NCBI GenBank assembly: GCA_027320085.1
Contig: DAHVLZ010000009.1
Coordinates: 320,001 to 384,000 of the forward strand
Direction: 5' to 3'
Origin: Pseudomonadota bacterium
GTDB taxonomy: Bacteria; Pseudomonadota; Gammaproteobacteria; JAKAQQ01
Length of the DNA stretch: 64,000 nucleotides
The translations under genes were made by a program, and so were the position numbers. Within the stretch, counting starts at the first letter, position 1; the number at the start of each line of letters is the position of its first letter. A model generated the notes under the pieces. That model was given only the letters and a program-made list of their open reading frames with translations. It searched no databases and was not told the origin of the DNA. This document shows positions 1 through 4,118 of this stretch, piece by piece.

Positions 1-792
1 CGGAACGAGTTGAAGGGGCTCCAAAACGGGTGCGAAAATCTGTTCCCAATGGGTGGTAGGGGAATCGGGTGCAGTCGAGAGGACGACTCCATCAATCAGG
101 TCGGCAGTCCACCACATCGCAAACCCAAAGACCCATCCGGTCTGTTCGAACCGCCAATCCACTCGGCACCGTCTTCGGCTCCGGTAGCGGGTACCAAAAT
201 CAATCCGATCCCAGACGCGCGCAGGTGGGATTCCTGCGAAGTCAGCCGACTGAAAGGTTCGAACATAGAGGTTCTGGCGGCTCAAATGGCTGAGGGGCGT
301 CAAGTCCAGATCCATACCGTCGGCCCTCCAGGGGTCGAGTTCAGCCCAAAAACGGGCGCTCCCGACCGGCCGGATATACAGGGTCAGCGCATTCGGTATA
401 CGGATTCCGCCCGGTACCAGAAACCGTCGCGCATCCCACAAAACCTCTCCGATTCCTTCCTCAAGCCCTAAATTGCCCAAGGTCTCGGAAACTACGAGAT
501 CAACCGGCTCCGGGTCCAGAATCGACCTCGAATCCTCAGCGAAAACCTCGATCCGTGAAAGGCGGTTGCGACGCACAAGGAATTCCGAGAGTTTCGCCAG
601 CGGAATTTCCCGCTCATAAAGTGTGGTCGAACGCGCCCCCAAGGCATCAGACATGAATCCCAGCCATCCGGTTCCGGAACCCAGGTCCGCCACGCGGGTT
701 ACACCCGGCTGGATTGCCATTTTCAGGGCCTGGCAGAACGCCTCATTTCGGACACGGTCAGCCGCTAGGCGGCGATGGTAGTCGATCAGCAT
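1..792 (-). CDS. PRMT-like (protein arginine methyltransferase fold) SAM-dependent methyltransferase, 3' end outside window
   Basis: Hand translation from ATG at 792 is open to base 1: MLIDYHRRLAADRVRNEAF...VADLGSGTG (SAM motif I)...VDLVVSETLGNLGLEEG (double-E loop)...ARRFLVPGG...FGFAMWW...LSTAPDSPTTHWEQ (THW loop). Not in the ORF track. Confidence 0.85.
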   Translation of the reverse strand, partial: MLIDYHRRLAADRVRNEAFCQALKMAIQPGVTRVADLGSGTGWLGFMSDALGARSTTLYEREIPLAKLSEFLVRRNRLSRIEVFAEDSRSILDPEPVDLVVSETLGNLGLEEGIGEVLWDARRFLVPGGIRIPNALTLYIRPVGSARFWAELDPWRADGMDLDLTPLSHLSRQNLYVRTFQSADFAGIPPARVWDRIDFGTRYRSRRRCRVDWRFEQTGWVFGFAMWWTADLIDGVVLSTAPDSPTTHWEQIFAPVLEPLQLVP

Positions 793-823
793 GAAACGGG
801 TTCCCCAAGAGCGAGGGGCTTGC

Positions 824-851
824 TTGACAAGAGATTCCGCATCATTATGAT
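824..851 (+). promoter_or_regulatory. putative sigma70 promoter
   Basis: TTGACA (824-829), 16 nt spacer, TATGAT (846-851). Confidence 0.45.
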
Positions 852-1440
852 AAAAAGCGGTCAGGAGTGCTCACCCACGCGTAAACGGACCTGGCAGATT
901 GCAGGCGCGATAATCCTCTCCGGAGGATTAGGTTCCTCGGCGGGTTGTGCCGTGAGTCCATTTCGCGCCTTTCACCCCGAGATTCAATCTGCACGGGTCC
1001 GGGCAAGCCCTATCTGGATCTATCAGGTTACCCTGCCGGGTGTGCTTCGGAACCCCGAGCACCAGCTGGTTGTCCCTGTCGACGTAACCTTCATCAATAC
1101 CAGCCGGGAGCCGATCAACAAAATCCAGTTCGTATATCTCACCTACGACAGTCTCGGGATACTTCGTCGCGATCGCCAGAACAATCTGCCCTTGGCGCTT
1201 GTGTTGCGTGTCCCGGGCCCCTTCGAACCGGGGCATGCCTACGAAGTAGATACCCAGCCCGAAGGACTACCGGGTCTCGGTACCTCATGCATTCGGCTGG
1301 TTTCACTATCGATCCACTGGCCAGATCGTGCCGTCAGAATCCACGGCAAGGCCTTGACCCAAGACCTTGCCCCCATACTGAGGAAGCATTGCGCAGACCT
1401 CGGACCCGCCATTTTTGTCCGTTCACAGGGCGGACGCTAG
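847..1440 (+). CDS. hypothetical lipoprotein (start uncertain)
   Basis: Basic N-terminus, hydrophobic stretch and lipobox-like SAG-C; fills the gap between neighbours; no family recognised. Confidence 0.55.
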   Translation: MIKSGQECSPTRKRTWQIAGAIILSGGLGSSAGCAVSPFRAFHPEIQSARVRASPIWIYQVTLPGVLRNPEHQLVVPVDVTFINTSREPINKIQFVYLTYDSLGILRRDRQNNLPLALVLRVPGPFEPGHAYEVDTQPEGLPGLGTSCIRLVSLSIHWPDRAVRIHGKALTQDLAPILRKHCADLGPAIFVRSQGGR

Positions 1441-2215: not shown

Positions 2216-2995
2216 ATGTCAATCACTTTGGCCAGTTGGAACGTCAATTCGGTTCGTGCCCGCTTGGAACAAATCAAAGACTGGGTGCATCTGCGTCCGG
2301 TCGACATTTTGGCGCTACAAGAAACCAAGGTAGTCGATGCAGATTTCCCCCGTGAGATTCTAGGATCTTTCGGCTACACCGACATCCTCTCCTCGGGCCA
2401 ACCCTCCTACAATGGGGTCGCACTCCTGAGCCGGCGCCCCCTGATTGGCCCCCTTGAGACCGTGCTGGATCCCCTTCCTCTGGACTGCCGTTACCTCTCC
2501 GCTGAGATCCCTGAGAGTTTTTATCTCATCGACATTTACGCACCGAATGGCGAATCGCTGCAGTCGTCAAAGTTTTCCCACAAGCTCACCTGGTACGAAC
2601 GACTGATCGCTCATCTCGAACACCTGCTCCCCCAACATCCCAAAATTGCCTTGGTCGGAGATTTCAATGTCGCACCCACCGACCTCGATGTCCATGACCC
2701 TGAGGCTTGGCAGGATTCGGTCTTGACCGACAACCGGGCAAGAGACGCCCTCCGAGCTCTCGAGCGTCTGGGTTTCCAGGATGCCTTCCGCCTTCTCTAC
2801 CCGACGGAATCGGTTTTCTCTTGGTGGGATTATCGGGGGGCAGCCCTAAGGCGCAACGAAGGTCTCCGGATTGACCTCATTCTATTGTCAAAAGCTCTCG
2901 TCCCCCATCTTCGAGCGGCGGGAATCGATACAGATATTCGACGTCATGCCCGACCCTCTGATCATGTACCGGTCTGGGCTGAATTCAAACCATGA
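2216..2995 (+). CDS. xth: exodeoxyribonuclease III
   Basis: SWNVNS, LQETK, YNGVA, GDFN, SWWDYR, RIDLIL, SDHVPV motifs. Confidence 0.95.
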   Translation: MSITLASWNVNSVRARLEQIKDWVHLRPVDILALQETKVVDADFPREILGSFGYTDILSSGQPSYNGVALLSRRPLIGPLETVLDPLPLDCRYLSAEIPESFYLIDIYAPNGESLQSSKFSHKLTWYERLIAHLEHLLPQHPKIALVGDFNVAPTDLDVHDPEAWQDSVLTDNRARDALRALERLGFQDAFRLLYPTESVFSWWDYRGAALRRNEGLRIDLILLSKALVPHLRAAGIDTDIRRHARPSDHVPVWAEFKP

Positions 2996-3369
2996 ATACC
3001 CCACGGACTTGGCCGACCGAAATCCGCCTAGATCATAAGCGGACATGCCTGTCGGTCCGGTTCGGTGACGGGCACTCCTTCAGGTTCCCCTGTGATTACC
3101 TGCGTGTCTTCAGCCCCTCAGCGGAAACAGGAGCAGCCATTGGCCGAGACCCCCAGCTTTGGGTCCGGGTTCCCGCGACCCTGCGCATCCGTTCGATTGA
3201 GCCAGTAGGCCGTTATGCGGTTCGCATCGTCTTCGAGGATGGCCATGACAGCGGGATCTATGCTTACGATTTTCTACGCGAGCTTGGCGAAACCCAAGTC
3301 GAACGCTGGTCCCGTTACCTGTACTATCTTGAATCGGTGCAAACCTCTTCGCGTGAGGGTTCAACATGA
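2992..3369 (+). CDS. DUF971 / gamma-butyrobetaine hydroxylase N-terminal-like protein
   Basis: YLRVFSPSAE, IEPVGRYAV, FEDGHDSGIY; typical position upstream of ubiE. Confidence 0.88.
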   Translation: MNTPRTWPTEIRLDHKRTCLSVRFGDGHSFRFPCDYLRVFSPSAETGAAIGRDPQLWVRVPATLRIRSIEPVGRYAVRIVFEDGHDSGIYAYDFLRELGETQVERWSRYLYYLESVQTSSREGST

Positions 3370-4118
3370 ACTCAGGCGATCCCTCGACCCATTTTGGATT
3401 TGAAACAGTCACCCCAGAAGAAAAGACCCGCCGGGTGCGGCAGGTCTTTGAATCCGTGGCCCCCCGCTATGATGTCATGAACGATCTCATGTCCATCGGC
3501 CTGCACCGGGTCTGGAAATCGTTTCTCGGGGCCATAAGTCCGAGCTATCCAGCTCCACGGATCCTGGACTTGGCATCCGGAACAGGCGACCTCGTGCGAG
3601 TTTTGCGTCATCGCTATGGACCTAGCGTGGAGCTTATTGCCTCCGACATCAATCCTTTCATGCTGGCTCAAGGCCAGGAACGGAAGCATGCTTCCACCCG
3701 ATCCCTAGCCAGCCTCTATGTGCAAGCCGATGCCGAGCAGCTACCATTCCCCTCAGGCTACTTCGACCTCGTTACGCTGGCTTTTGGCCTTCGCAACATG
3801 ACTCATCCCGATAAGGCGCTCACCGAAATCCATCGCGTTCTCAGGGTCGGCGGGGTGACCCTCATTCTTGAATTTTCCCACCCGCGGGGCCGGGTTTTCC
3901 AGCGACTCTACGACACGTACTCCTTCGAGATCTTGCCACGTCTGGGCCGCTGGATCGCCCAAGACGAAGCCAGTTATCGTTATCTTGCTGAATCCATTCG
4001 CCGCCATCCGGACCAGGAGACTCTAAAACTCATGATGCAGGAATCCGGACTGGCCCGTGTGGAGTACTTCAACCTGTGTCGTGGAATTGTGGCACTGCAT
4101 CGGGGCTACCATCTGTGA
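3366..4118 (+). CDS. ubiE: ubiquinone/menaquinone C-methyltransferase
   Basis: THFGF, VFESVAPRYDVMNDLMS, LDLASGTGD, FGLRN, YRYLAESIRRHPDQ. Confidence 0.96.
   Translation: MNSGDPSTHFGFETVTPEEKTRRVRQVFESVAPRYDVMNDLMSIGLHRVWKSFLGAISPSYPAPRILDLASGTGDLVRVLRHRYGPSVELIASDINPFMLAQGQERKHASTRSLASLYVQADAEQLPFPSGYFDLVTLAFGLRNMTHPDKALTEIHRVLRVGGVTLILEFSHPRGRVFQRLYDTYSFEILPRLGRWIAQDEASYRYLAESIRRHPDQETLKLMMQESGLARVEYFNLCRGIVALHRGYHL

Follow-up and report, generated by a model that had tools for sequence, protein, structure and literature searches.

A complete PRMT-fold methyltransferase gene and its amino-acid permease neighbour in an uncultured mine-drainage bacterium

A gene lying across the left edge of the stretch of DNA analysed here (the window: 64,000 nucleotides of contig DAHVLZ010000009.1, positions 320001-384000 of contig C1 in our numbering of the genome, G000) encodes a complete enzyme with the fold of protein arginine methyltransferases (PRMTs), in which a Rossmann domain that binds S-adenosylmethionine (SAM) is followed by a PRMT β-barrel with its dimerization arm, and in which the catalytic signature is intact. 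We favour, at a probability of roughly 55%, the reading that the protein is a dimeric SAM-dependent guanidino-N-methyltransferase of the PRMT family that acts on protein arginine. The gene is an added member of a large, already named bacterial family and is not rare; its pairing with a permease gene and its C-terminal tail are specific to its lineage.

A complete PRMT-fold enzyme

The initial annotation described a minus-strand frame running from an ATG at position 792 to the window edge (positions 1..792, 264 codons), and an open-ended listing of open reading frames (ORFs) returns the same frame. A frameshift or early stop beyond the window was looked for and none was found: the frame continues for another 67 codons, giving an intact protein of 331 amino acids (aa), P0002, of which the window holds the first 264 codons. 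The whole gene occupies G000:C1:319797-320792, its end lying 204 bases ahead of the window start. ATG 792 is the first start codon downstream of the preceding stop, relatives begin at the same residue in the alignment, and a GGGGAA sequence is located 8 bases ahead of it. The gene is under purifying selection, the ratio of non-synonymous to synonymous substitution rates being 0.16-0.18 among species of the genus. The host, an uncultured mine-drainage bacterium with a genome of only 2.1 Mb, carries a single PRMT-like gene.

The motifs quoted in the initial annotation (YHRRLAADRVRNEAF, VADLGSGTG, VDLVVSETLGNLGLEE, ARRFLVPGG, GFAMWW and LSTAPDSPTTHWEQ) all stand in the translation where it had placed them. 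Within YHRRLAADRVRNEAF (residues 5-19) lies the helix H6-x2-L9-x2-D12-x2-R15 (positions 748..777, minus strand, as for all the features of this gene), which aligns to 'HEEMIADRVR' of PRMT6 and is the counterpart of the N-terminal H..M..D..R helix of PRMTs. SAM-binding motif I, VADLGSGTG, comprises residues 34-42 (667..693), and the acidic post-I residue after strand 2 is E60 (613..615). VDLVVSETLGNLGLEE (residues 97-112, window 457-504) contains the double-E loop E103-TLGNLGLE-E112 (457..486), in which eight residues separate the two glutamates, as in the SE..G......E loop of CARM1 and PRMT6 to which it aligns. ARRFLVPGG corresponds to residues 121-129 and GFAMWW to residues 223-228, and in the β-barrel domain the THW loop T247/H248/W249 (46..54), which aligns to 'THW' of CARM1 and PRMT6, lies in LSTAPDSPTTHWEQ (residues 238-251). 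The match of the double-E loop, the THW loop and the H..D..R helix to solved PRMTs is residue for residue in HMMER alignments. When conservation was counted in an alignment of 50 relatives, D12, R15, G38, G40 and G42 were invariant, and E60, E103, E112, T247, H248 and W249 were at least 90% conserved. All of the signature residues are therefore intact: GxGxG, E60, the E103/E112 double-E loop, the D12...H248 pair and THW.

Database searches place the protein in the PRMT family and not with PrmA, the L11 lysine methyltransferase, as the initial annotation had proposed. The 264-aa fragment alone passes Pfam PRMT_C (28.7 bits, cut-off 27), and the full protein passes both PRMT_C (32.4 bits) and PRMT5_C (38 bits, cut-off 30.3); no NCBIfam model matches it. 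A phmmer search of PDB sequences with the fragment gave 70 matches; CARM1 ranked first at 6.7e-15, and every one of the 60 listed is a PRMT. With a profile of 14 close relatives there were 75 matches, again with PRMTs in all of the 60 listed; PRMT6 came first (1.1e-38, positions 4-304), followed by PRMT7 (4.9e-29) and PRMT5 (2.6e-23), type I enzymes outranking the latter two. Judged from such sequence comparisons, the likeness of the ORF to PRMTs is far beyond chance. A PADLOC scan gave a match to the 'mad2' methylase model (31 bits, residues 16-130), but this was generic to the Rossmann domain, and a defence-system context was rejected.

The predicted structure agrees. An AlphaFold2 model made from a 50-row alignment has a pLDDT of 91.9 and a pTM of 0.88, with low confidence only at residues 301-331, and shows strands through residues 125-300, the C-terminal domain. 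The PRMT β-barrel, for which the model was checked, is present, and 296-300 residues superpose on PRMT2, CARM1 and PRMT3. Foldseek against the PDB placed CARM1, PRMT6 and PRMT2 at the top (best CARM1 8uqh_C, E 5.8e-26, TM 0.80). In a VIA-align comparison with 48,161 representative chains, the top 15 were PRMTs, with Z falling from 31.9 to 24.2 over 281-300 residues; the best match was PRMT2 9qca_A (Z 31.9, root-mean-square deviation (rmsd) 2.5, 300 residues aligned), and PRMT2, CARM1, PRMT3 and PRMT6 all superpose at Z 30-32 over ~300 residues. The next entry, PrmA 3grz_B, scores far lower (Z 14.8) and aligns only in the Rossmann core, over 121 residues.

A dimerization arm is discernible in the model at about residues 144-175 (268..363; helices 147-151 and 165-171), and a PRMT-like head-to-tail homodimer is predicted, in which arm residues 151-174 of one copy would pack onto residues 1-11, 41-50 and 64-76 of the Rossmann domain of the other. 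The homodimer score was 0.69, as against 0.01 for the best of three controls; of 30 proteins solved as one-chain pairs 20 attain this mark, as does 1 of 23 solved as single chains. Contact agreement between runs was at least 93% and the pLDDT of the partner at least 90. This pass may reflect only the likeness of the protein to PRMT dimers that have already been solved.

Compared with the eukaryotic type I PRMTs (PRMT6, PRMT2, CARM1/PRMT4, PRMT3, PRMT1/8), the bacterial protein has the same two-domain fold (rmsd 2.5-3.0 over 296-300 residues), shares motif I, the double-E loop, the THW loop and the H..D..R helix, and retains the dimerization arm, through which the arm-to-Rossmann homodimer is predicted. 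In contrast, sequence identity is only ~20-23%, the host is a bacterium, there is no lid helix, YFxxY motif or accessory domain, and the last 30 residues form a disordered tail found only in this genus. The protein, taken to be cytoplasmic, is thus a minimal PRMT core without the lid helix. A core of ~300 residues that has the full catalytic apparatus and a very confident model makes a convenient candidate with which to test bacterial PRMT chemistry on proteins versus free arginine, and the family to which it belongs suits study of the ancestral PRMT core without eukaryotic additions.

Relatives and distribution

The protein belongs to a family of bacterial relatives of ~310 aa, which have the same motifs and are likewise single-domain; it differs from them in its genus-specific C-terminal tail and in the LAT-type permease pairing, which is confined to its own bacterial family, f1. 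A search restricted to proteins of similar length gave at least 410 clusters at E<=1e-3, and 119 listed relatives of 288-332 aa are 41-86% identical to the protein over 82-100% of its own length. A representative library returned 5741 matches at 1e-3 and 86 at 1e-30, and a single-protein scan of genome contigs returned two loci only. IMG names members of the family, close relatives included, 'protein arginine N-methyltransferase 1'. Because the family is large and already bears this name, the find is less unusual than first thought. Mislabelling as an L11 methyltransferase, which the initial annotation foresaw, does occur: relatives carry the name '50S ribosomal protein L11 methyltransferase' in four NCBI records (MCU0970794.1, MFA5530164.1, MCK9530717.1 and MGE0079949.1). 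In genomes without a recognizable PrmA, such as G000, this label would wrongly imply that PrmA is present.

In the sample of relatives, the gene is kept in all nine other genomes of f1. Elsewhere in the class, a match was found in only 1 of 31 other families, and it was weak (4.5e-5); at the level of the phylum, the family profile finds a match at 1e-20 in 38 of the 401 genomes sampled, one of them G000. Every one of 200 bootstrap trees (100%) recovers the f1 genes as a single group, in which genus g2 sits on a long branch; P0130 was assigned to this group by its likeness to the g2 sequences. The description of the protein as stand-alone holds: it has a single domain, for which the failure of a search at E<=1e-10 to find any fused or longer form of 581-2000 aa is weak evidence.

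A shorter fusion was seen in P0246, a distant PRMT-like protein of 434 aa from a Myxococcales metagenome-assembled genome (NCBI GMV42695.1; E 4e-29 to P0002). Rnk_N and GreA/GreB C-terminal domains are fused to its C-terminus. Domains of these two types bind RNA polymerase, and the fusion suggests that some bacterial PRMT-like enzymes are directed to that target.

A literature search found no biochemical study of any member of the ~310-aa family, and no paper characterizing a bacterial PRMT-type writer. Arginine methylation has been reported in bacterial proteins; in one example, methylation of PhoP at R112 in Salmonella is attributed to CheR (PMC8546571).

The substrate and the permease pairing

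In the mechanism that we favour, E103 and E112 would keep the guanidinium of an arginine side chain close to the SAM methyl group, which would pass to a terminal guanidino nitrogen. Since the nearest solved relatives are type I enzymes, the expected product would be monomethyl-arginine and perhaps asymmetric dimethyl-arginine, and the likeliest substrates would be arginine residues of one or a few cytoplasmic proteins. We infer protein arginine as the substrate because the gene stands alone in varied, ordinary contexts across many taxa. A survey of neighbours started from 84 loci of the subfamily, of which 13 had no complete ORF spanning the match and were dropped; the 71 that were kept yielded an upstream neighbour in 60 cases and a downstream one in 58. 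The largest neighbour clusters were a convergent RidA/YjgF-like protein, present at 16 loci, an SDR and an unnamed protein of 324 aa, at 11 each, and an alpha/beta hydrolase, at 10, and no partner was conserved throughout the 71 loci. Variable, ordinary neighbours together with retention in every other f1 genome are the pattern expected of a general protein-modifying enzyme, and we count the P0246 fusion to domains that bind RNA polymerase as context favouring a protein target.

Several observations weigh against this reading. Type I PRMTs carry an N-terminal lid helix with a YFxxY motif ahead of the H..M..D..R helix. Here only five residues (the start reads MLIDYH) precede the conserved histidine, so that the lid helix is missing, and the structures align from residue 153 of CARM1 and residue 56 of PRMT6 onwards. 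Two methionines flanking the active site of PRMT1 shape type I product specificity, favouring asymmetric dimethylation. In their places stand L9, which is M or L in relatives, and I114, which is invariant; both are hydrophobic but not methionine, so that the product type is not readable from them. The placement of E103 and E112 in the active site would follow from residue-level alignment to solved PRMTs rather than from measured geometry. The start of a LAT-type permease gene falls on the stop of the PRMT-like gene, and the two are adjacent throughout f1, which hints at a free amino acid as substrate. Bacterial enzymes that methylate free arginine are known, namely SznE/StzE (PMC11705231 and PMC12637814). 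The closest bacterial sisters of eukaryotic PRMTs were placed by a comparative analysis among peptide methylases of secondary-metabolite operons (PMC3417536). Finally, a crude six-frame scan of G000 for RGG-rich tails gave only the SSB tail and one exported protein; its output was otherwise mostly spurious ORFs of high GC content and held no usable candidate substrate.

The exported protein of that scan is a 308-aa ORF on another contig (L137:3196-4122, minus strand; G000:C30:97195-98121). It opens with a signal-like N-terminal segment, is rich in aromatic residues and proline in its middle, and ends in five FRGGPGQ repeats, a tail reminiscent of eukaryotic RGG boxes. Because it is probably exported, it is an unlikely substrate.

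The permease itself is a protein of 455 aa, of LAT/SLC7 type (AA_permease_2, 188 bits), encoded on the same strand just outside the window (L014:8134-9501, minus, just before the window start in G000:C1), its start codon overlapping the stop of the PRMT-like gene in the sequence ATGA. Its best relatives in the PDB are xCT, LAT1, BasC, b0,+AT and y+LAT, and it scores 211 bits with TIGR00911, below the cut-off. Several of these relatives transport arginine. Wherever the assembly of an f1 genome extends downstream of the PRMT-like gene, in eight genomes, the two genes are adjacent; G003 and G008 could not be assessed, because the PRMT-like gene runs off the contig end there. The two genes are co-directional in genera g1 and g3 and convergent in g2, where the permease gene is inverted and the pair is still adjacent though 15 of 16 other neighbouring genes were not found.

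This conserved pairing, together with the precedent of SznE/StzE, sustains the main rival reading, which we think considerably less probable than methylation of proteins: that the enzyme methylates free L-arginine, or a related free guanidino compound, and that the permease would import the substrate or export methylarginine. SznE, of streptozotocin biosynthesis, is also a bacterial SAM-dependent methylase of the arginine guanidino group (PMC11705231), and could work like the present enzyme if the substrate here is free arginine. SznE acts on free L-arginine within a biosynthetic gene cluster, whereas the PRMT-like gene has no such cluster, and no biosynthetic genes that use N-methylarginine were found within 10 kb on either side of it. 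The pairing is, moreover, confined to one lineage. Outside f1, no permease gene lay beside the PRMT-like gene in any of 29 loci from the phylum (with flanks of only 1.5 kb) or in locus L003, and in a metagenome scan run with a 14-row alignment the pairing occurred in 1 of 80 loci (L051), whose PRMT-like gene is 60% identical and f1-like. Because the f1 genes form one clade, the pairing arose once, and because the g2 genes are convergent, they are not co-transcribed. Nor is the overlap distinctive, since overlaps of four bases occur in 138 of the 938 pairs of co-directional neighbours that a crude ORF call gives for G000, including an unrelated UDG/PhzF pair. A more specific form of the idea, in which the two genes make up a module of this mine-drainage lineage whose PRMT-like enzyme makes N-methylarginine from free arginine for export by the permease, a eukaryote-like LAT/SLC7 exchanger (or modifies an imported guanidino compound), we regard as doubtful; if it is true, bacteria would have a way to make free methylarginine, as a signal or antimetabolite, independently of protein turnover.

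A link to methylarginine recycling was also considered and dropped. Contig C7 of G000 (L131:156-2409, minus strand) carries two adjacent genes for enzymes that modify guanidino groups, one a citrulline hydrolase of the CtlX type (338.8 bits, cut-off 334), the other related to the arginine dihydrolase ArgZ (363 bits, cut-off 450) and to mycobacterial dimethylargininase (DDAH; 249 bits, cut-off 300). PF19420, which covers both proteins, has matches in all nine other f1 genomes and is rare in the class. Outside f1, however, the ArgZ/DDAH-like gene does not co-occur with PRMT-like genes: the seven other genomes of the phylum sample that have it (one, G419, unpublished) share none with the 37 other genomes that have a PRMT-like match, and this too speaks against free arginine as the substrate.

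The remaining explanations are less probable still. A role as a methylase that tailors a peptide or another secondary metabolite, in the manner of the PRMT-like domains of antibiotic biosynthesis operons, we consider improbable, because the neighbours of the gene are the permease and, on the window side, a lipoprotein-like ORF, Skp/OmpH, exonuclease III, a DUF971-type protein, UbiE and UbiB, and because the commonest neighbours in the survey are of the RidA/YjgF-like, SDR and alpha/beta hydrolase types, with no non-ribosomal peptide synthetase, polyketide synthase, oxygenase or biosynthetic cluster among the 11 cluster representatives scanned; the failure to find fused forms of 581-2000 aa and the small genome point the same way. 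It is very unlikely that the gene is a misrecognized L11 lysine methyltransferase standing in for PrmA, in spite of the four records that bear that name and the apparent lack of PrmA in G000 (best 29 bits against a cut-off of 183) and at E<=1e-20 in the other genomes of g1 (0/3) and in g3 (0/3). PrmA shares with the present protein only the class I Rossmann SAM-binding core, over which, and not over its N-terminal L11-binding domain, the solved structure aligns, and lacks the PRMT β-barrel, THW loop and double-E loop that are features here; accordingly, the PrmA models give only 13.3 bits (PF06325, cut-off 22) and 13 bits (NF001785, cut-off 188). Two of the three g2 genomes carry both a PRMT-like and a PrmA-like gene, and although 22 of the 31 other families of the class have a PrmA match at 1e-20, eight of the nine that do not are without a PRMT-like match as well. 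The two genes thus do not alternate, and we rejected replacement of PrmA on the strength of this coexistence and family distribution. A catalytically dead scaffold of the 'prozyme' kind is scarcely credible. Dead PRMT homologues exist in trypanosomes (bioRxiv 10.1101/776112), and the lid helix is missing here, but the SAM-binding and catalytic signature residues are conserved across the 50 relatives and, as G000 holds one PRMT-like gene, there is no active partner for a scaffold to activate. Methylation of protein arginine remains the reading that we prefer.

Records and flanking genes

Only four DNA runs, all from one mine-drainage study, contain the pair of PRMT-like and permease genes, and no RNA run is listed for it. 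A scan of the region for promoters and terminators gave counts close to those of shuffled controls and was uninformative.

On the window side, a divergent ORF of 221 aa (775-1440, plus strand) begins at an ATG that overlaps the start of the PRMT-like gene by 18 bases. An internal methionine with ...LSSAGC after it resembles a lipoprotein signal and puts the probable true start near 847. The ORF matches nothing in Pfam or NCBIfam; it is conserved at 46-85% identity in g1 and g3, and no counterpart was found in g2. Further along the same strand (2216-4118), the genes for exonuclease III, a 125-aa GBBH-like_N (DUF971) protein and UbiE are linked by four-base overlaps.

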